Source: an uncultured Gammaproteobacteria bacterium
GTDB lineage: Bacteria; Patescibacteriota; Patescibacteriia; 2-12-FULL-60-25
Reading direction: 5' to 3'
Assembly: GCA_964474805.1 (NCBI GenBank)
Contig: CAYYTQ010000003.1
Span: forward strand, 8,343 to 72,342
Length of the DNA: 64,000 bases
The position numbers and the translations under genes were made by a program. This document shows positions 33,751-42,357 of the stretch, piece after piece. Every line of letters begins with the position of its first letter. Within the stretch, counting starts at the first letter, position 1. Under the pieces are notes generated by a model that searched no databases, was not told the DNA's origin, and saw only the letters and a list, made by a program, of their open reading frames with translations.

Positions 33751-35997
33751 TTAGCGGGTGGGAGCCGAAGCCGCTTCGAGCTCGGCGACGCTCTGCTCGT
33801 ACTTTTGCTTCCCACCAGGGAAAAGGCGCTCGACCTGGTCCACGAAACGCGTCTCCAGGTCCTTGCGGCCAGCAAGACGGGATTGGTAGGCGAATTGGTA
33901 GTAAGGACCCTCACCCCCAGCGCTGTCATCGGATCCGACCTGGTTAGCCCAGGCGTCCAACTCTGCCCCGCGGCCAAGGATACGGTACGCGTGGAACACG
34001 GGCACCAGCTCGCGGATATTGCTCGGACCGTACGGGAACGGCTTCTCCAAGGCGGAAACGATTAATCGCGCCCCGTCTTGCTCGCGCTGGAGGTCGAAGA
34101 GATACGTCAGCCCCGCCATCCAATCGCCATAGCCGTTCTCCGGATCAGCATCCTGGATGGCCTTGATCTGGGCCAGGGCGTCATCGATCCGGTTTTGCGA
34201 GATATAGAGACGAGCCAACCCTTCGTGGAGCTGCTGGCGCTTGGGGCTATAGGTCAGAGCCACTTTGAATTGCTCTTCTGCTTCCGTGGCCTGGTTAGGC
34301 ATGAATTCGGCCGTATCCGCGAGCAAACGAGCGTACACATACCGGATGTAGCTGTTCTTCGGGTGCCGATCCGTCTCCTGCTTGCCGGCGGCCTTCGCGA
34401 CATTGATCCATTCTTGCCATTGTGGGACCTTCGTGAGATTACTGCCGACGCCCACAAGGGTACGCGTCAGCAGGAAGACCTGCTCATCACGGTAAGGCGT
34501 CCAGATGCGCATGGAATCTTGGATGTTCTGGAGCGCGGAGGCCTGCGGAAAGAGCTGGCTCGCCTTGATCGTCAGGAAAGACGCCCGGAACGGCAAGATC
34601 GACGTGCGCCAGACCAACAGTCCCGCCAACAGGAAGACCGGAGCGGCCACCCAGACCCGCAGGTTCCGCGGCGTCGCATCTTCCGGATGTGCCGGCGAAG
34701 AGGCCAGGAACCCGGGACTGGTCGCCGCGATCACGAGCCCGAACATAAGGTAGCTCAGTACGAACCCAGCCGGATGGTCGAAGACAAACAAGTTCTGCAC
34801 GAAATAGGCGACCGGCAAGGCAACCAGGAACGACGCGAACACATGGTCGATCCACCCGCGCTTATAGGCCCGATACACCGACCAAAACAAGCAGAGAAAG
34901 ATCCCGATATATGTGAGGAATCCCAGGACCCCCGTCATCGATAGGACGTCGAGGACCGTGTTGTGGGCCCGGTCAAACCAGGTCTCGTACAGCGAATACC
35001 GCAACGAGATCGGGTTGTAATGCATGTTGAAGATGATGTGGAAGGTGTCCAACCCCCATCCGAAGACGGTGCGTAAAGGAGCCTCCAGGAAGCTTTCCCA
35101 AGCAATGCGCCACGCAATGAAGCGCGTCGAGGCGGTGGAAGAGAAATCCAGAAACCGATTTAGCCGCAAGGCTTGAACCACCTCGGTGCCGCGCGCAAGG
35201 TATAAAATCCCATACCCAACCATAGCGGCCACAACTGAACCGACTGCCGCGATCCGATTGCGGCGACGCTCCGATGTAATACCAAAGAACACCGCAAAGG
35301 CAACCAATCCCACGAATAATCCCACCAAAGGCCCGCGTGACTGGGATGCCGCAAAACCAGCGACGCCCAACAAGCTCAAGACTCCATAAGCGACCCACCA
35401 GCCCCGTATACGCGTTTTAAAGGCGAGCAGGGCCAGGATAAAGAACGCGAACATCTGGTACATCCCCATGTAGATCGGGTTATCGAGAATACCGCCTACA
35501 CGATCCCCCGCCCGGTAGAAGAACACTTCGGGATTCACCCACCGTTGCCAGATCGCGGTAAGCGCAACAGCCCCACCCACGAAGGCCTGCACCCGCAAGA
35601 ATGTCTCCCACTCTTTCCAGGTACGCAACATCCCGATAAGCATCACGAGCCACGCCAGGAAATGCAAGAGCGTGAAATACCCGTTCATGCGCTCCTGGTT
35701 GCCCCACCACGAGCGGAGCGGATCGATCGAGAAGACCACGGACAGGCCCATCGCCACGAAATAGGCGAGTACCGCGAAGAGCAGCGGGTGCTTACGCGGC
35801 CGGAATTCCGGCTCCATCCAAGCCAAGAGCGCATAGGCCGGAAATGTAAGGCCAACCAGGACCTGGAAGACGATCAGCTTTGAGAAAACGAAGGGAAAAA
35901 TGACCTCCTTGATGAAGACAAGCGGAATCAGCAGGCCGCCGAAGACCCCGGCCCAGGCGACCGCCTTCAGGGCGCGTACCAGCAATGGACGTGACAT
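33751..35997 (-). CDS. Wzy_C (O-antigen ligase/O-oligosaccharyltransferase family) polytopic membrane protein with C-terminal TPR-like domain
   Basis: 748 aa with ~12 hydrophobic helices over aa 1-460. Wzy_C-like region LLGVAGFAASQSRGPLVGLFVGLVAF. The C-terminal ~270 aa are soluble and TPR-like (AEEQFKVALTYSPKRQQLHEGLARLYISQNRIDDALAQIKAIQDADPENGY). Confidence 0.75.
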   Translation of the reverse strand: MSRPLLVRALKAVAWAGVFGGLLIPLVFIKEVIFPFVFSKLIVFQVLVGLTFPAYALLAWMEPEFRPRKHPLLFAVLAYFVAMGLSVVFSIDPLRSWWGNQERMNGYFTLLHFLAWLVMLIGMLRTWKEWETFLRVQAFVGGAVALTAIWQRWVNPEVFFYRAGDRVGGILDNPIYMGMYQMFAFFILALLAFKTRIRGWWVAYGVLSLLGVAGFAASQSRGPLVGLFVGLVAFAVFFGITSERRRNRIAAVGSVVAAMVGYGILYLARGTEVVQALRLNRFLDFSSTASTRFIAWRIAWESFLEAPLRTVFGWGLDTFHIIFNMHYNPISLRYSLYETWFDRAHNTVLDVLSMTGVLGFLTYIGIFLCLFWSVYRAYKRGWIDHVFASFLVALPVAYFVQNLFVFDHPAGFVLSYLMFGLVIAATSPGFLASSPAHPEDATPRNLRVWVAAPVFLLAGLLVWRTSILPFRASFLTIKASQLFPQASALQNIQDSMRIWTPYRDEQVFLLTRTLVGVGSNLTKVPQWQEWINVAKAAGKQETDRHPKNSYIRYVYARLLADTAEFMPNQATEAEEQFKVALTYSPKRQQLHEGLARLYISQNRIDDALAQIKAIQDADPENGYGDWMAGLTYLFDLQREQDGARLIVSALEKPFPYGPSNIRELVPVFHAYRILGRGAELDAWANQVGSDDSAGGEGPYYQFAYQSRLAGRKDLETRFVDQVERLFPGGKQKYEQSVAELEAASAPTR

Positions 35998-36069
35998 ATG
36001 CCCCTCAGGCTAACGGATCCGCACAAAAAAACCAACCCCCGAAGGGGTTGGTCTTTTGTACGAGATCGA

Positions 36070-39000
36070 TTACTTGCTCAAGACAACGGATCCGGAGATC
36101 GTGTCGACCAAGTATTCGTTCGTCCAGTCGCGCGAGACACTCTCGGAACCCGTGAAGATGTTCGAGTAGTGCGGCTGTTCAGCCTTGTCAGACCAGAGCA
36201 ACGCGTAAGCCGTATCGCCACCACCCGTGAGGAGGGTCGGCGCGGCAGAGGTTGCGCTGATACCAACGAGACCCGCATTCTCACCTTCAACCGTGATCTG
36301 GGCAGAGCTCTGGGCCAAGTAGCCAGTGATGGCATTGGTAGAGACCGAGCCAGAGAAGGTGCGGAGCGCCAAGCTCGTGCTGATGGAGTCACCCGTCGTC
36401 GAGCTCAAGCCACCGACCGTCGCCACGAGGGAGAAGGTCGAGCCCGTGCCGGAAACGGTTTCCTCGTTCGAGAAGCGAACGAGCACCATCATCGTCGCGG
36501 TCGCCGTGGAAGCGTAGACGTTGACCGTCGAGCTTTCCAGGTTCGTGCCGTACGCATCGCGGATATCGATGTCGGCCAAGTTCATGTCGACACCGTTCTT
36601 CTGCAAGCGGAAGTTACCGAGCGTCATGTTCGAGGTCGTCGTGACGGCAACCTTGAAGGTCATCTGCTTGATGCCGACTTCCCCGCCTTCAGAGCCAACC
36701 TGCGCGCGGTAAAGCGTGCGTTGACCAGCGGCGAGCGTCGTCGCGACGCCAGAGACTTGCGAAATGACCGGCTTCGACTTGCGAACGACGAAGGAGTTGC
36801 CAACGATGTTCGAAGCGGAGGCCTGGTAAACGCGCTCACCAGAGGCGTCACCCGTCGCACGGAGAGCCAAGTTGCCGTCGAAGAGAGCGGACGTGAAGAT
36901 CGTGCTCGCCGTCCCACCGACCGTCAGGGCGCCCGTCGGGAGACCCAGCGCAACCACGTTACCGGTCAACGGAGCCGTTGCAGACGTACGCTCCGAGGAG
37001 GAGGTCATGCGTTCTGCCATGCGGCCCAAGAGACAGACGTAGGTCGCGGAGCCTTTCGGAACCACGATCGGGTTGCTGGAGAGGTCAATCTCGCCCGGCT
37101 GGTCGACACCGCTCGGGAGAGAGGTGGTCCCGCGGATCGAGAAGGTCCGACAGTCCGCATCAGCGGATTGCACCACCGCGACACCGCCCGGGACATCGCT
37201 GCCCGCCGGGGTGGCCGAGGTGAAGTTCGCGGCAGCACCCGTGGAGGTGACACCGACGTAGTCAATACGAATCGCTTCGTACTGAGCATCCGCGCGGTAG
37301 CGGGACATCACATGCCAGGTCGTCCCATCGGCGACGAGGATCGTCGATTGGCGCTGGTTGTTAGCCGCAACCGTGAGCGTACCACCGGCACGGACGGACT
37401 GAGCGATCGTCGGAGAGGTCGAAGCGTTGTTGTCGACGGCCGTCGCACGGGAAGCGGTGACGGTGTTGCCGTCCTCGTCCTGCGCAGCGACGTCTGCATC
37501 CACATCGATACCAATCGCGAAGCGGTCCGTCGTCTTGGAGACGGAGGAGTCAGCGTTACAGCGGACTTCCAACGTCTTCGTCATGCCGCGGTTCACCTGG
37601 AGGTTGAGACCAGAGAAGGTCATCGTACCATCGCTGCTCGGGGACAAACGGGTACCGACCGCCGTGGCACCGTCGAACAAGCCACAGGAGTTGACCACGT
37701 CATCCAATTCAGCGGCAGAGTAGACCGAGTTCCCCGCTTCTGCATCACCGAAACCGGTGAACTTCAGAGAGGTAATACGTACCGCGCTCTGGGAGCCGGC
37801 CGTAAAGGTGAAACCGGCGGCCGGGATGTCCATCTGGTTCTTCACGAAGATGTCCGCGGACGGGGTCCCAGCGAGGGCCACGTTCAGGGTCGGGGTGCGC
37901 ACCGTCATGGTGTTGCCCGTCACCGTCGTGTTCGGAGCAATGCCCGTGGTCAAGAACTCACCGGAGCTCAAGATACGGAGGTCGGTGCTGCCGAAGATCT
38001 GGTCACTGGTGTTCCCACCCAAGGCAAAGCGGTAGGTAGAACCATCCGTGATGCTGTTGGAGGTGTCCGCCGTGATGACGAAGTTGCGCGTCTGGCCGGC
38101 ACGGATCGTGACGGAGACAGACGGGGAGAAGGCCTTGTAGCCCGGAGCGGCACAAGCCGTGGAACAGCTGACCGGACCAGCGACGATTTCGCCAGTGTCA
38201 GCGTCCTTGATCTTGATGTCGCGGAGGAATTCCGTCGTCCCATCGAACACGCCGGAAACGGTGCCGGTCACCGCGAAGTTCATGCGGCGGATCTCGACGT
38301 CGTTGGAGCCGGACGTGATGGCGAAGCGATAGAAGACCGCGTCGTTCTGGCCACGACCGACGTTGGCCGTTGCCGGACCATTGTAGGTGATGGTGAACTG
38401 ACCGCCTTCCGTGGTGGAGTAGCTGGCGTTGCTCGTCGTGGCGCTGGAACCATCGTAGGAACCAGAGCACGGCGAGGTCGAATCCGTACAGACCTGAGCA
38501 CCCGTGCCGTAGACGCGGTCAACGACGTAGACGTCGGACGTGTATTCGGCGTAGATGCGGATCGTGCGACCGGAGCGACCGGCGACCATACCGCGGAGGT
38601 TGAAGGTGCGAGACTGGCCGTTCGGGATGACGAACGGGGTCGCGAAGTTCAACACGATCTTCCCGTCAGCCGCAACCGTGCTGGCCGCAGCGACTTCCGT
38701 CGCGCCCTGGTAGAGCTTGAGGTTGGTGAGATCGGAGTTGGAGATCGTGCCAGCCTGGTAGAGCGTGACGCGGCGGACTTCGACGTCGTTGGAACCGTTC
38801 GCCTGGAGGCGGAAGTTCGCAAGTTCGGCGTCAGCCGTACCAACGCGCGGGTTGGCCGGTTCGGAACCGTCGATCACGTCAACGCGAGCCACGGAAGCGG
38901 TACCGACCGTCATCGCGTTGCCGCGAACCGGGAAGGAACCGGAGACCGTGCTGGAACCCTCGACGACGACCGAGGCCGCGTCAGCGAGTTCGAAGGCGTG

Positions 39001-40059
39001 CTGACCACCCGTCGAGCTCGGGCTGGAGAGGTCCGCCGAGACGTACACGGATTGGGTCATGCCGGCCGCGATGTCAAGCATCAGGCCGTTGAATTCGACC
39101 GTGTTGGACGCCGAGCTGATCGTGCGGCCAGAGGTCAAACGCGTGCCGTCCGCCTTGTAGAGGTAGACGTTGCTGAAGTCCGTGGTGGAACCAACGCCCA
39201 CGCGGCGGAACTTCATGCCCGTGACGCGGATCGAGCCGCTACCGGCCATCAAGTTCACCTTGGTGAACATGACGCTCTGGGCGTTCTTCGGGAGGACCAT
39301 GGCGGCCGGAGAATCCGAGGCCAAGGACACCGTCAAAGCGCCGCCGACCGGGGTCGTAGAACCACCGGAGGACATGATCGCATCAGAGAGTTCGGCTTCG
39401 CGGGAGTTGACGTCCGTACCCATCGGGTAGGAGATCGTCGTCTGGATCACGTTGCCGGATTGGAACATGTTCGCGCTGAAGCCAGCGTCCGTGATGCGGC
39501 GGCGCATGCCACCCCACACGACGTAGCGGTCAGAGGAACCCGAGTAGGACACCAACGAACCATCCGGGTGGACGGCCGTGGCGAGCGAGGAGCCGATCGT
39601 GTAGTTGACGAAGAAGGCATCCGGGACGTCAACGACGCGGCGGGCCCAGTTCGAGCCGAACAAGGCGGTCGCGACCGATTCGGTCTCGACCCAGCGGAGC
39701 ATACCGCCACGAGTGACGGCGTAGACTTTCGGATCCGTCGTGATCTTCACGAGGTTCGTGCCCGGGCGGATGGTGACGTTGCCACCAATCATGATCGCCG
39801 AGAGCTCGGAGTCGCTGATCGTGCGGACGCCGGAGAAGTCAGAGAACCACGAGCGATACGTCGTCTCATTCGGGAAGACGTAGCGGCGGTTGTTTTGGAA
39901 GTAGTAGACAGCCGGACCAGAAGCCTTGATGAGGTCACCGTTCATGAGGGTGGCCGCAGATGCCACAGAAGGCACCGCGAACGCACCGACACCGACGGAG
40001 GACAACACCGTGGAAAGGGTCGCGACCGTAGACACTACCTTTTTGGAAAATTGACCCAT
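36070..40059 (-). CDS. Giant secreted modular surface protein (1329 aa), function unknown
   Basis: It has a Sec signal peptide (MGQFSKKVVSTVATLSTVLSSVGVGAFAVPSVASA|ATL) and three ~55-aa N-terminal repeats. At least 6 diverged beta-rich modules follow. The protein is rich in Ser/Thr/Gly/Ala/Val/Asn. I recognised no LPXTG, SLH, lipobox or C-terminal TM. Confidence 0.85.
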   Translation of the reverse strand: MGQFSKKVVSTVATLSTVLSSVGVGAFAVPSVASAATLMNGDLIKASGPAVYYFQNNRRYVFPNETTYRSWFSDFSGVRTISDSELSAIMIGGNVTIRPGTNLVKITTDPKVYAVTRGGMLRWVETESVATALFGSNWARRVVDVPDAFFVNYTIGSSLATAVHPDGSLVSYSGSSDRYVVWGGMRRRITDAGFSANMFQSGNVIQTTISYPMGTDVNSREAELSDAIMSSGGSTTPVGGALTVSLASDSPAAMVLPKNAQSVMFTKVNLMAGSGSIRVTGMKFRRVGVGSTTDFSNVYLYKADGTRLTSGRTISSASNTVEFNGLMLDIAAGMTQSVYVSADLSSPSSTGGQHAFELADAASVVVEGSSTVSGSFPVRGNAMTVGTASVARVDVIDGSEPANPRVGTADAELANFRLQANGSNDVEVRRVTLYQAGTISNSDLTNLKLYQGATEVAAASTVAADGKIVLNFATPFVIPNGQSRTFNLRGMVAGRSGRTIRIYAEYTSDVYVVDRVYGTGAQVCTDSTSPCSGSYDGSSATTSNASYSTTEGGQFTITYNGPATANVGRGQNDAVFYRFAITSGSNDVEIRRMNFAVTGTVSGVFDGTTEFLRDIKIKDADTGEIVAGPVSCSTACAAPGYKAFSPSVSVTIRAGQTRNFVITADTSNSITDGSTYRFALGGNTSDQIFGSTDLRILSSGEFLTTGIAPNTTVTGNTMTVRTPTLNVALAGTPSADIFVKNQMDIPAAGFTFTAGSQSAVRITSLKFTGFGDAEAGNSVYSAAELDDVVNSCGLFDGATAVGTRLSPSSDGTMTFSGLNLQVNRGMTKTLEVRCNADSSVSKTTDRFAIGIDVDADVAAQDEDGNTVTASRATAVDNNASTSPTIAQSVRAGGTLTVAANNQRQSTILVADGTTWHVMSRYRADAQYEAIRIDYVGVTSTGAAANFTSATPAGSDVPGGVAVVQSADADCRTFSIRGTTSLPSGVDQPGEIDLSSNPIVVPKGSATYVCLLGRMAERMTSSSERTSATAPLTGNVVALGLPTGALTVGGTASTIFTSALFDGNLALRATGDASGERVYQASASNIVGNSFVVRKSKPVISQVSGVATTLAAGQRTLYRAQVGSEGGEVGIKQMTFKVAVTTTSNMTLGNFRLQKNGVDMNLADIDIRDAYGTNLESSTVNVYASTATATMMVLVRFSNEETVSGTGSTFSLVATVGGLSSTTGDSISTSLALRTFSGSVSTNAITGYLAQSSAQITVEGENAGLVGISATSAAPTLLTGGGDTAYALLWSDKAEQPHYSNIFTGSESVSRDWTNEYLVDTISGSVVLSK

Positions 40060-40306
40060 AGGGAACCAATAAGGTTGGTCCCGAGCGCATCGTTTGCCAT
40101 GTTAAAGCGGCAAGGACACGTTCGGAACAAGAAGTGAGAATGAGTAACGACTCGGATCCTCCTTTTACAAGGAGCACGACCTTTATTGACCCAAGCCAAG
40201 AGGTTCGAACACGAGGCAGGAAGGTGTTCCTCATCCTGCAGGGAATCCATGCCACGAGCACAGATGCCCTGTCGGATGCGGGAGAAGCGGATCTTCTCCC
40301 CTGGAA

Positions 40307-41590
40307 CTACTTGCCTGCGGGAGTGGTTGAAGCGGTGGGCGTCAGAGCGGCGGGACTGGAGGTCGAAACCGCAGAGCCGCCGCTCCCGCCTTGCGGCGTA
40401 GCGACGCTTGAGGTTGGCGATGTAATGACCGCCGTATTGGTGGAGCCGCTTCCGCTCGGAACCTCCGAGACCGAGGAAGAGGCATTTGCGGCAGCCGAGA
40501 GGCTGGGCAGCACCGAATTCACGGTCCGTTCCGCCACCGTGACGGCGCGCGCGGCCTCCCCCAGCTTTTCTTTTAGCGTTCCGAATTGGTCTTTTTCGAG
40601 GAGTTGGCGCATTTCCTCGAGGGAGGCCTGCGCCTGCTTGAGCTGGTCAAGCGGTTCCTTGAGAAGTTCCGCCGGGGCGGCCGCTGAGGAGCTGGCTGAA
40701 GCGTTGAGGAGCGGGTCCAAGGCAAGAATTTTGGAGCTGCTGGCGGCATTGGTGATTTCCTCAACTTTTTTGGTGCTGTCGGCGATCCCTTGTGCAAGCC
40801 CTTCCATGTGGCCGGTCACTACCCGTTTGAGATCGTCGTTACTGACGACCGCCGTCACCCCTGGATCGTCGCGCTTGTCGATAAGGATCTGGACGGCCTT
40901 GAGGCCGGCGTTGACGGCGGCGACCTGGACTTCGGCGACGTTCTGCTTGATGTCGGCGGGAACGACCTCCTTGACTTCCTTGAGCGTCTGAACCAGGCGT
41001 CCGCTCTTTTCGTCTAGGTCTTTCGCGGCTTCGGCGGCCTCGGGAGCCGATGATTCCATGCCCACGTTATGGAGTTGGAGCTTGACGGCATCGAGGTCCT
41101 GCTTGAGCGAATCTGTGGCTTCGCGCAGACGATTGGCGTTCTTTGGGGCATCAGCCTTGGCGAGCTGCTTGATCTCTTCCCCACGACGTTCGACGAATTC
41201 GGCTTTGAGTTTCAGCTGATTGGGCGGCTCTTTTTCCATGAAGAGGCGCGCCTGCTCGGTCGCGAGCTTTACGGGGTAGAGCAGGTCGCCGGGTATGGAG
41301 CGTTCGGCGGCTGAAACGCTCGCGAGCGACCCTCCCAACACCACCCCGAACACCGACAGGACCGCCATGACCGGCCCTCTGATGGTTTCAACGAGCGGCC
41401 GCGGAACGAATGACAAGATGAGCGCTTTTATGCGAGCACCAAAAGACACCGGGGCACGATGTAGCGCGTCACGGCGGACTTCTTTTAAGAGAATGTTTCG
41501 GGTACGCGCCACCCATGCCGCATCGGGGCGGATGCGGCGTTCGGCATCTCTTAGTTGCCGAACGGCAATTTTGAGGTGGCGTTTGTTCAT
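40307..41590 (-). CDS. Single-pass membrane protein, putative anti-sigma factor (DUF5667-like ectodomain)
   Basis: The track ORF runs to 41749 and overlaps the sigma gene. ATG at 41590 (MNKRHLKIAVRQLRDAERR) lies 34 nt after the sigma stop. The layout is a ~75-aa cytoplasmic N-terminus, a TM helix (VMAVLSVFGVVLGGSLASVSAA), then IPGDLLYPVKLATEQARLF, a helical region and a Ser/Thr/Ala-rich tail. The anti-sigma role is inferred from position and topology. Confidence 0.5.
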   Translation of the reverse strand: MNKRHLKIAVRQLRDAERRIRPDAAWVARTRNILLKEVRRDALHRAPVSFGARIKALILSFVPRPLVETIRGPVMAVLSVFGVVLGGSLASVSAAERSIPGDLLYPVKLATEQARLFMEKEPPNQLKLKAEFVERRGEEIKQLAKADAPKNANRLREATDSLKQDLDAVKLQLHNVGMESSAPEAAEAAKDLDEKSGRLVQTLKEVKEVVPADIKQNVAEVQVAAVNAGLKAVQILIDKRDDPGVTAVVSNDDLKRVVTGHMEGLAQGIADSTKKVEEITNAASSSKILALDPLLNASASSSAAAPAELLKEPLDQLKQAQASLEEMRQLLEKDQFGTLKEKLGEAARAVTVAERTVNSVLPSLSAAANASSSVSEVPSGSGSTNTAVITSPTSSVATPQGGSGGSAVSTSSPAALTPTASTTPAGK

Positions 41591-41624: not shown

Positions 41625-42209
41625 TTACGGCTTTTTCGTATCACCGGCCTGCAGGCGTTGGAGGGCCTTGAAGGCGCGATGGTAGAGGACGCGAACTGTC
41701 CCCGCCTCCTTCCCCAGGGCTTCAGCGATGTCCTGGAAAGAGAGGTCATCGAGGAGACGGAGGGTGAGGACGTCCTGGTAATCTTCTTTCAATTGGCCGA
41801 TTTGTGCGAGAACGAGGGCGAGGTCAGCCTGGGCCTCAATGGCCCGCGACCCTTTGCCCGCATCCGAAATAATCCCTTCGTGATCAGAAGCCGGTTCGGG
41901 CACCGGAAACGTTACACTCCCCCCTTCCGCGGCGGCATGGCGACGGCGGTATTCGTCGATGACGAGGTGACGGGCGATCCGATAGAGCATCCCACGGACA
42001 TGCCGGATCTCTTCCCCGCGCTGGAGGGCCTGCCAGAAGCGGAGGAAGGTCTCGGAGGTCACTTCTTCGGCCTGCTCACGCGACGAAAGCTTCACGTAGA
42101 CAAACCGATAAATAGCCTCGACGTAGGCATCGTAAATCTGGGCGAACGCCTGCTCATCCCGAGCGGCCCGCACCCGATAGGCATAATAGGATTCGAGTAA
42201 GGAAAACAT
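41625..42209 (-). CDS. ECF-type RNA polymerase sigma-70 family factor
   Basis: ATG at 42209 (MFSLLESYYAYRVRAARDEQAFAQIYDAYVEAIYRFVYVKLSSREQAEEVTSETFLRFW) gives region 2. Region 4 is LSFQDIAEALGKEAGTVRVLYHRAFKALQ. About 194 aa with no region 1 or 3. Confidence 0.85.
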   Translation of the reverse strand: MFSLLESYYAYRVRAARDEQAFAQIYDAYVEAIYRFVYVKLSSREQAEEVTSETFLRFWQALQRGEEIRHVRGMLYRIARHLVIDEYRRRHAAAEGGSVTFPVPEPASDHEGIISDAGKGSRAIEAQADLALVLAQIGQLKEDYQDVLTLRLLDDLSFQDIAEALGKEAGTVRVLYHRAFKALQRLQAGDTKKP

Positions 42210-42357
42210 GGCGGAGACTCTCCGAAGAGAGCCGGTCACCCATTTGTCGTCAATTATTCGCTTGTTTAAGCCATTTTTTAACTAGCAGGCAAAAGCAGGC
42301 GGAAGGAATGGCGACAGAAGGAACGAGGGGGCGGGAACACGAGTCCCGAACGGGAAA

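Follow-up and report, generated by a model that had tools for sequence, protein, structure and literature searches.

A secreted six-module protein with an uncatalogued N-terminal triple repeat is a candidate wall-anchored surface-layer protein of Uhrbacteria-type Patescibacteria

Analysis of a 64,000-nucleotide stretch (here called the window) of contig CAYYTQ010000003.1 (GenBank assembly GCA_964474805.1, positions 8,343 to 72,342) revealed a minus-strand gene at window positions 36070 to 40059, stop codon included, that encodes a protein of 1,329 amino acids (aa) designated P0001. The source genome, that of an ultra-small bacterium of the Uhrbacteria type within the Patescibacteria, is 1.2 Mb in size and 97% complete. 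Comparison of sequences and structural modelling suggest that P0001 is probably a major wall-anchored surface-layer (S-layer) or coat protein of these bacteria. In the proposed mechanism, a triple repeat behind the signal peptide would bind the cell wall, either peptidoglycan itself or a polymer attached to it, and hold P0001 on a cell without an outer membrane, and a body of six modules would assemble into the outer lattice. The conserved Wzy_C/tetratricopeptide repeat (TPR) enzyme and the Wzm/Wzt glycan locus, both encoded next to the P0001 gene, might serve either to O-glycosylate P0001, which is rich in Ser and Thr, or to make the polymer bound by it. An extracytoplasmic function (ECF) sigma factor and a DUF5667 protein encoded upstream would control its transcription.

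A large part of bacterial diversity falls within the Patescibacteria (candidate phyla radiation [CPR]), whose cells lack an outer membrane and live in attachment to other cells. In cryo-transmission electron microscopy, CPR cells from groundwater showed an S-layer but no outer membrane (10.1101/2020.05.14.094862). The protein forming the regular coat seen by cryo-electron microscopy has never been identified experimentally. P0001 is a strong candidate for this coat in the Uhrbacteria/ABY1 branch and links this branch to an S-layer family modelled in a preprint (10.1101/2024.05.28.596244).

Domain organization of P0001

A first-pass annotation, made from the sequence alone, had described P0001 as a secreted modular protein; its coordinates and example peptides were correct. 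The N terminus consists of an n-region (MGQFSKK), a hydropathy peak at aa 8 to 30, and a predicted ASA/A cleavage site. From these features we infer export via a Sec-type signal peptide (aa 1 to 35; positions 39955 to 40059, on the minus strand like all P0001 features). The signal peptide had already been recognized in the first pass; its n, h, and c regions are visible, and P30, A33, and A35 near the cleavage site are invariant in 49 homologs.

Three anchor repeat units follow. Unit 1 (aa 39 to 97; 39769 to 39945) was delimited by hhalign and by the DSSP assignment of an AlphaFold2 (AF2) model, in which it has the order beta-beta-beta-alpha-beta-alpha. Unit 2 (aa 98 to 165; 39565 to 39768) was delimited by hhalign and profile searches, and the more diverged unit 3 (aa 166 to 230; 39370 to 39564) by hhalign. 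A flexible linker, SGGSTTPVG (aa 231 to 239; 39343 to 39369), which was placed by the predicted local distance difference test (pLDDT) of the AF2 model and by the hhalign boundary, forms the junction between anchor and body. The body comprises six modules delimited by hhalign and AF2. Immunoglobulin (Ig)-like modules M1 (aa 240 to 392; 38884 to 39342; also covered by Foldseek) and M2 (aa 393 to 530; 38470 to 38883), the latter with the conserved Cys524 at its end, are followed by a Ser/Thr-rich linker defined by its composition (aa 531 to 547; 38419 to 38469; 47% Ser plus Thr), which holds Cys531. The Ig-like modules M3 (aa 548 to 722; 37894 to 38418) and M4 (aa 723 to 892; 37384 to 37893), the beta module M5 (aa 893 to 1092; 36784 to 37383), which is the most diverged, and the C-terminal beta module M6 (aa 1093 to 1329; 36073 to 36783) complete the protein. 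Alignments located a W-S-D-x-S...D-W-T-N motif close to the end of M6.

The mature protein has a mass of approximately 134 kDa and a pI of 5.0. The residue content of P0001 is 12% Ser, 11% Thr, 11% Ala, 10% Gly, and 10% Val, and Ser plus Thr account for 23%. The first-pass observation of paired cysteines was refined to eight cysteines in four pairs (524/531, 632/636, 792/834, and 970/1009). Cys524/Cys531 and the pair Cys792/Cys834, which lies in M4, are kept in 33 to 42 of the 49 homologs.

Classical anchoring signals had been reported absent in the first pass, and the searches bore this out. No LPXTG motif with a hydrophobic tail was found in P0001 by regular-expression and hydropathy scans, and no hydrophobic stretch was found by the hydropathy scan beyond the signal peptide, so that there is no C-terminal transmembrane segment. 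A Pfam search detected no SLH domain (PF00395) in P0001 or in its genome, and no lipobox was seen in P0001 as judged by eye alone. A sortase substrate of the MSCRAMM or pilin type was rejected as an identity for P0001 because the C-terminal LPXTG signal with its hydrophobic tail is missing.

The N-terminal triple repeat as a candidate wall anchor

The three repeats described in the first pass are mutually related with the unit boundaries given above. The hhalign probabilities were 96.9% for units 1 and 2, 94.1% for units 1 and 3, and 96.4% for units 2 and 3, and a broader alignment gave unit-to-unit E values of 1e-10 to 1e-7. This significance depends on the boundaries; a first set gave a probability of approximately 1%. 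Each P0001 unit also matched the four clean repeats of a paralog from contig C10 of the same genome at 97 to 98% (unit 3, 97.9%). Residues W71, R98, Y113, W123, and W138 of the anchor are invariant.

Units 1 and 2 constitute a mobile module of approximately 125 aa that is present on other secreted proteins. A profile of aa 36 to 230 detected the module, mainly as units 1 and 2, on 11 other open reading frames (ORFs) of the same genome, in N-terminal, internal, or C-terminal position. The Pfam passengers of the module in this genome are a cupredoxin, a trypsin-like protease, He_PIG, and Big_7; in one more of these ORFs an HExxH motif was recognized by eye, and a further one contains four tandem repeats. 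An exhaustive database search revealed 4,771 cluster representatives with the module at an E value of at most 1e-3, 1,325 of them at an E value of at most 1e-30. Across the database the module resides at the N or C terminus, and its passengers include Big_1/invasin-like domains, Big_5, a subtilase, a Cu-binding domain, and an ice-binding-like domain.

Homologs of the P0001 body in other classes carry different domains at the N terminus. Three SLH domains were found there (E value of 9e-29, in another homolog 1.4e-14), as was PG_binding_1 (E values of 4e-11 and 6e-12); further homologs begin with an NBR1/CARDB-like Ig domain or with a diverged version of the repeat. To follow the covariation of these anchors, each anchor type was counted in 21 genomes. 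In all 9 genomes whose coat protein carries the triple-repeat module, the module is present on 4 to 14 ORFs per genome, and it had no match in the 10 genomes with an SLH-, PG_binding_1-, or NBR1-type body homolog. SLH was confined to the 3 genomes with an SLH-type homolog, with 18 to 41 matches, and had no match in the remaining 18. PG_binding_1 was less exclusive, with 0 to 5 matches in many of the 21 genomes. The swapping of anchors at the same position, together with the covariation between module and coat anchor type at the genome level, identifies the triple repeat as an anchor candidate. At the level of sequence, the repeat behaves as a lineage-wide general wall-targeting module. The first-pass statement that P0001 has no recognizable anchoring motif thus holds only for the domain databases, and the accompanying suggestion that the triple repeat may be the wall-binding part gained support from the SLH and PG_binding_1 domains at the same position and from the covariation.

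The arrangement resembles that of SLH-bearing S-layer proteins such as Sap/EA1 and SbsB, in which a three-unit N-terminal wall anchor precedes the assembly domains. Like SLH, the P0001 anchor is common to many other secreted proteins of its own genome. In contrast to the helical SLH domain, the P0001 repeat unit is of mixed beta/alpha type (beta3-alpha-beta-alpha). The repeat module, with a length of approximately 125 to 190 aa, would mark the wall-attached secretome and is absent from Pfam and NCBIfam. With a domain model of the repeat, thousands of CPR surface proteins now called hypothetical would be annotated better, and the module would provide a means to label uncultured cells or to pull them down. 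It also offers a testable hint on the function of the EccB repeats described below.

Two carriers of the module outside the window were recorded. The C10 paralog (C10:25001-26488, plus strand) is a secreted protein of 495 aa with four clean units of approximately 58 aa after an N-terminal region, which has no Pfam match and contains a lysozyme-like LMQKEQS stretch by eye; the protein may be a wall hydrolase that uses an anchor of the triple-repeat type. The 262-aa protein encoded at C15:18587-19375 (plus strand) combines the anchor module with a cupredoxin of the plastocyanin/azurin type (PF00127; E value of 2e-9); judging by these domains, it would be a blue copper protein tethered to the wall, encoded by a genome of minimal metabolism.

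Resemblance of the repeat to EccB

The repeats of EccB1 have been described as a four-stranded sheet with two helices in approximately 50 to 57 aa (PMC4769845). They are weakly similar to the wall-binding protein PlyCB, and peptidoglycan binding has been proposed for them (PMC4769845). The P0001 repeat unit contains the same elements (three strands, a helix, a strand, and a helix by DSSP of the AF2 model); this comparison concerns element composition alone. Matches to the EccB family (PF05108) were obtained for four module-bearing sequences, all below the curated cutoff for membership (best E value of 9e-5; 21.7 bits versus a cutoff of 27), and a genome-wide scan of the P0001 genome with PF05108 gave no match. 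A profile of the single unit matched Mycobacterium tuberculosis EccB1 (Protein Data Bank [PDB] entry 4KK7) with an E value of 0.003 summed over four weak stretches; these stretches fall on the four repeat domains of EccB1, and a designed Kelch-type protein scored equally. A phmmer search of the PDB with the C10 repeats gave no match, and the profile of the full anchor domain gave only chance matches to antibody TAVYYC segments in the PDB. A relationship between the triple repeat and the EccB repeats (PF05108; 4KK7) is plausible but unproven. In both, a unit of approximately 55 to 65 aa comprises four strands and two helices, and both are located in the cell envelope. EccB, unlike the P0001 anchor, is a membrane component of the type VII secretion machine and not a portable anchor.

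The six-module body

AF2 was run on two monomer halves, aa 36 to 722 and aa 715 to 1329. The N-terminal half reached a pLDDT of 86.1, with aa 231 to 239 as the sole internal segment below 50, and the C-terminal half, which contains M4 to M6, reached a pLDDT of 90.2 and a predicted TM-score (pTM) of 0.82. The latter value indicates a fixed geometry between the modelled domains M4 to M6. The first-pass annotation had counted at least six diverged beta-rich modules; all six body modules are all-beta in the AF2 models, and five of them (M1 to M4 and M6) are related at 91 to 98% by hhalign. The pairwise probabilities were 97.4% for M1 and M3, 97.7% for M1 and M4, 94% for M2 and M3, 91% for M2 and M4, and 93% for M2 and M6. 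M5 matched the other modules weakly (19% at most). Profile self-alignment thus revealed significant internal repeats both among the N-terminal units and among modules M1 to M4 and M6.

Searches of whole P0001 against Pfam, NCBIfam, and PDB sequences gave no match. Foldseek searches with both halves retrieved generic tandem Ig-like proteins only, with approximately 9% identity and TM-scores below 0.3. These matches were mostly of the adhesin type (antigen I/II C-domains, PrgB, MSCRAMMs, and RbmA). Homology to a known enzyme family, which had been named beforehand as a finding that would speak against a structural role, was looked for in Pfam, NCBIfam, PDB sequences, and the Foldseek results for the halves, and none was found.

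Conservation is unevenly distributed along the protein. The anchor and M1 show 61 to 66% identity and the C-terminal modules 33 to 43%, and M6 outside its C-terminal motif is the least conserved part of P0001. The motif itself, W-S-D-x-S-E...S-R-D-W-T-N (aa 1287 to 1329 approximately; 36073 to 36200, minus strand), shows little or no variation within the family, and the consensus of relatives from other classes repeats it as F-x-W-S-D-N-S...D-W-T-N-G-Y. The conserved motif and the rigid geometry predicted for M4 to M6 would fit an assembly interface.

Relatives of P0001 and a predicted Patescibacteria S-layer family

At least 309 full-length homologs of P0001 were detected, with lengths of 1,256 to 1,385 aa and 43 to 92% identity at 100% coverage. 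All named full-length homologs are annotated as hypothetical and originate from Patescibacteria or "Candidatus Uhrbacteria". A species-level genome scan yielded at least 574 confirmed relatives, and 144 of 201 sampled genomes of the class to which P0001 belongs contained a match, many in ORFs of approximately 1,200 to 1,400 aa. When 401 genomes from across the phylum were searched with the body alone (aa 236 to 1329), 77 had a match, in ORFs of approximately 1,150 to 1,560 aa, and 56 of these 77 belong to other classes. Along its whole length the body is homologous to proteins of approximately 1,100 to 1,300 aa throughout the phylum. P0001 is without a database family and yet, as these sequence matches document, it is not an orphan.

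Relatives of the PG_binding_1 type have 1,100 to 1,260 aa and are titled peptidoglycan-binding protein in Minisyncoccia, Vogelbacteria, Sungbacteria, and Taylorbacteria. Between the Uhrbacteria-type family and the PG_binding_1 type (Paceibacteria, Minisyncoccia), hhalign gave a probability of 100% and an E value of 1e-83 over 951 columns. The match spans P0001 aa 237 to 1329 approximately; it begins at the linker and leaves the anchors outside.

A putative Patescibacteria S-layer protein was found by scanning a Nealsonbacteria genome, according to a preprint (10.1101/2024.05.28.596244). The family is described there as having six Ig domains and 1,131 to 1,274 aa and as "numerous across many Patescibacterial classes," and a p6 lattice model is presented, with confident hexamer and lattice models obtained by AlphaFold-multimer. 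The preprint also states, citing PMC10936435, that in two Paceibacteria homologs rank in the top five signal-peptide genes by expression. Kuroda et al. (2024) reported that such proteins bear peptidoglycan-binding and Ig-like domains (PMC10936435). P0001 itself has a signal peptide, no functional assignment in the databases, and six tandem Ig-like modules, as the preprint family does. The PG_binding_1-type relatives fit the architecture described and are homologous to the P0001 body, and on this basis the P0001 family very likely is the six-Ig family of the preprint. The two share a signal peptide, six tandem Ig-like modules, a length of approximately 1,130 to 1,330 aa, a phylum-wide distribution, and the N-terminal side of anchoring. 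They differ in that the P0001 anchor is a triple EccB-like repeat rather than a peptidoglycan-binding or SLH domain; the preprint itself is computational. The first-pass label of a novel architecture was therefore overstated, since the six-Ig family had already been predicted (10.1101/2024.05.28.596244). Both the Ig-domain kind of Patescibacteria S-layer (as a preprint prediction) and the modular exchange of anchors in bacterial S-layer proteins are already known. What appears to be new is the anchor variant, an uncatalogued repeat module that is very widespread, mutually exclusive with SLH per genome, and possibly related to EccB.

A more distant parallel is csg of Haloferax volcanii, which, according to the preprint, shares six Ig-like domains, a left-handed spiral, and hexagonal pyramids with the Patescibacteria family (10.1101/2024.05.28.596244). 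No sequence homology is claimed, and csg was not in the Foldseek top 50. Unlike csg, which is anchored to lipid, P0001 would be anchored to the wall.

Alternative explanations for the function of P0001

Several observations limit the case for a lattice-forming coat protein. Codon adaptation was determined with tuf, the ribosomal-protein cluster, groEL, and dnaK as the reference set. The codon adaptation index (CAI) of P0001 was 0.657 versus a genome median of 0.479 (rank 112 of 1,132, approximately the 90th percentile), which, taken as a proxy for expression, is supportive but weak. The value lies under the ribosomal reference mean of 0.711 and is not extreme, and CAI tracks the GC content of the third codon position (GC3) with an r of 0.85 in an ORF set that was partly chosen on GC3. 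No solved S-layer protein was found in the Foldseek top-50 lists, which hold adhesins and pilins. The only known relatives of the triple repeat are the EccB repeats, which match weakly and whose wall ligand is hypothetical. Because SLH and PG_binding_1 also occur on proteins other than S-layer proteins, the swapping of anchors argues for wall anchoring and not for a lattice. None of the members listed in the preprint (Nealsonbacteria A0A1G2EN61, Kaiserbacteria A0A0G1WWP5, Doudnabacteria A0A1F5NRV7, A0A1F4NSF7, and Parcubacteria GMX59286.1) turned up by accession in cluster look-ups. The lattice constants given in the preprint fit less well, as the 13 nm measured for an unidentified member of the Patescibacteria is nearer to the 13.5 nm of a three-domain protein than to the 18.5 nm of the six-domain protein (10.1101/2024.05.28.596244).

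P0001 could instead be a wall-anchored surface protein that forms no lattice, that is, a host-attachment adhesin or spacer of an episymbiotic cell in which the Ig modules provide a stalk or binding surface. The dominance of adhesin-type tandem Ig proteins in the Foldseek results fits such a role, as does the presence of the triple-repeat anchor on other Ig-repeat passengers (Big_1/invasin and Big_5), and Kuroda et al. attribute a role in host attachment to related proteins of high expression (PMC10936435). The C-terminal modules, being the most variable, would suit a host-facing surface. Adhesins vary in repeat number, however, and the length and the order of the six modules are strictly conserved phylum-wide, with approximately one main full-length copy per genome. 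The rigid geometry and the phylum-wide motif at the C terminus fit an assembly interface, and for the probable family the hexamer and lattice models in the preprint are confident (10.1101/2024.05.28.596244). An S-layer can, moreover, also mediate attachment, so that the two functions do not exclude each other. On balance an adhesin or spacer without a lattice appears unlikely. A secreted protease trap resembling alpha-2-macroglobulin, or another beta-sandwich enzyme or inhibitor, is highly improbable: bacterial and animal alpha-2-macroglobulins appeared low in both Foldseek lists, but with TM-scores of at most 0.15, and P0001 has no thioester motif (CGEQ or CLEQ), no helical TED-like region, and no match to an enzyme family in Pfam, NCBIfam, or the PDB. 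The first-pass proposal of a secreted S-layer or surface protein, with the triple repeat binding the wall and the Ig modules exposed, gains support from the comparative evidence, and an S-layer protein is more probable than an adhesin.

Gene neighborhood and glycan locus

Upstream of the P0001 gene, and on the same strand, lie a 247-nt untranslated region deduced from gene spacing (40060 to 40306), which would hold the promoter and leader, a gene for a DUF5667 protein immediately beyond it (40307 to 41590; PF18915, E value of 9e-10), and a gene for an ECF-type sigma factor (41625 to 42239; Pfam Sigma70_r2, r4_2, and ECF). A promoter scan found no sigma-70 consensus promoter on the P0001 strand. 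Directly downstream is a gene for a membrane protein with a Wzy_C domain (O-antigen-ligase fold) and TPRs according to Pfam (33751 to 35997, minus strand). Neighbors were counted in the best 80 species-level loci, which have 38 to 92% identity and are all of the Uhrbacteria type. The ECF sigma factor was found upstream in 70 of 71 related loci and the DUF5667 gene immediately upstream in 67 of 71; the Wzy_C/TPR gene was immediately downstream in 54 of 65. Ten loci with 3-kb flanks came from other classes; a Wzy_C neighbor was present in five of these and an ECF sigma factor in three. In "Candidatus Yanofskyibacterium," a DUF5667 gene adjoins the gene for the highly expressed 692-aa signal-peptide protein PMX_810_sub_00350 (PMC10936435). 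That DUF5667 gene is annotated as ATP synthase subunit b' (PMC10936435, supplement file 4), which is probably a misannotation of the conserved neighbor.

An intrinsic terminator begins approximately 17 nt past the P0001 stop codon (36025 to 36052, minus strand; 9-bp stem at 36031 to 36052, TTCG loop, and T-run). It has an A-run before the stem as well as the T-run after it and can act on both strands. The start codon of the Wzy_C/TPR gene lies approximately 28 nt beyond the terminator and has its own Shine-Dalgarno-like site, GAGGGG.

Genes for family 4 glycosyltransferases (GT4), an epimerase, and Wzm/Wzt are located near the P0001 gene. The slg clusters of Geobacillus stearothermophilus and Paenibacillus alvei encode the Wzy_C-type O-oligosaccharyltransferases WsaB and WsfB. 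The P0001 locus resembles these clusters in the proximity of P0001 to a Wzy_C-fold enzyme, GT4s, sugar-nucleotide enzymes, and Wzm/Wzt, but its Wzy_C enzyme is fused to TPRs; the homology considered here is that of the Wzy_C domain. The Wzy_C/TPR protein is a candidate transferase of glycan onto a surface protein or a wall polymer.

It is conceivable, though we regard it as doubtful, that the glycan locus builds a secondary cell-wall polymer to which the triple repeat binds and does not glycosylate P0001. This alternative concerns the glycosylation step only, and the gene linkage would then reflect the pairing of an anchor with its ligand, as for pyruvylated secondary cell-wall polymer and SLH domains. 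The Wzy_C fold is found in polymer ligases (WaaL) and in protein O-oligosaccharyltransferases alike, a Wzm/Wzt exporter is typical of polymer export, and the terminator between the P0001 and Wzy_C/TPR genes means that the two are not strictly cotranscribed. The Wzy_C neighbor persists, however, beside body homologs with different anchors (the five of ten loci from other classes), which links it to the conserved body and not to one anchor type. The Ser/Thr content of P0001 and its Ser/Thr-rich linker also favor glycosylation of the protein, and Firmicute S-layer glycosylation likewise involves Wzm/Wzt and a Wzy_C-type transferase.

Taken jointly, a broader set of propositions is tentative at best. 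The triple repeat would be an uncatalogued wall-targeting domain of phylum scale, the ABY1/Uhrbacteria counterpart of SLH, and a true homolog of the EccB repeats, for which wall binding would then be the function. The strict exclusion between the triple repeat and SLH at the genome level would reflect walls of different chemistry in different Patescibacteria lineages. A dedicated Wzy_C-TPR transferase would O-glycosylate the coat protein, and a conserved ECF sigma/DUF5667 envelope sensor would control it, the whole forming a fixed, phylum-wide "coat cassette."

Reading frame, partial paralogs, and record titles

The plus strand opposite the P0001 gene contains an ORF at 35998 to 40137 that, with 1,379 aa, is longer than the P0001 ORF. 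Its product would be rich in Arg, Gly, and Asp. The GC content at codon positions 1, 2, and 3 is 0.79, 0.53, and 0.54 for this ORF and 0.54, 0.53, and 0.80 for the minus-strand P0001 gene, the latter being the pattern of the adjoining genes. The plus-strand ORF was rejected as a gene because its high GC at position 1 and low GC at position 3 mark it as the shadow of the GC3-rich P0001 gene, whose pattern matches that of its neighbors. Gene callers that rank on length alone would choose the wrong strand at 35998 to 40137.

Two short paralogs of the body, both without the triple repeat, were found outside the window in the same genome. The one at C12:4419-5606 (plus strand) resembles M1 and M2 (E value of 1e-36), and the one at C30:105-1982 (plus strand) resembles M3 to M5 (E value of 9e-74). 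Both start with lipoprotein-type signals (...VLAC and ...LLAC, respectively), which suggests that they may be membrane-tethered partial copies of the coat modules.

About half of the best 80 genome records with P0001 relatives are titled "uncultured Gammaproteobacteria bacterium" and belong to a series of metagenome-assembled genomes (TPA_asm, CAY*/CAZ*). The presence of this title on Patescibacteria records looks like a systematic mislabel.

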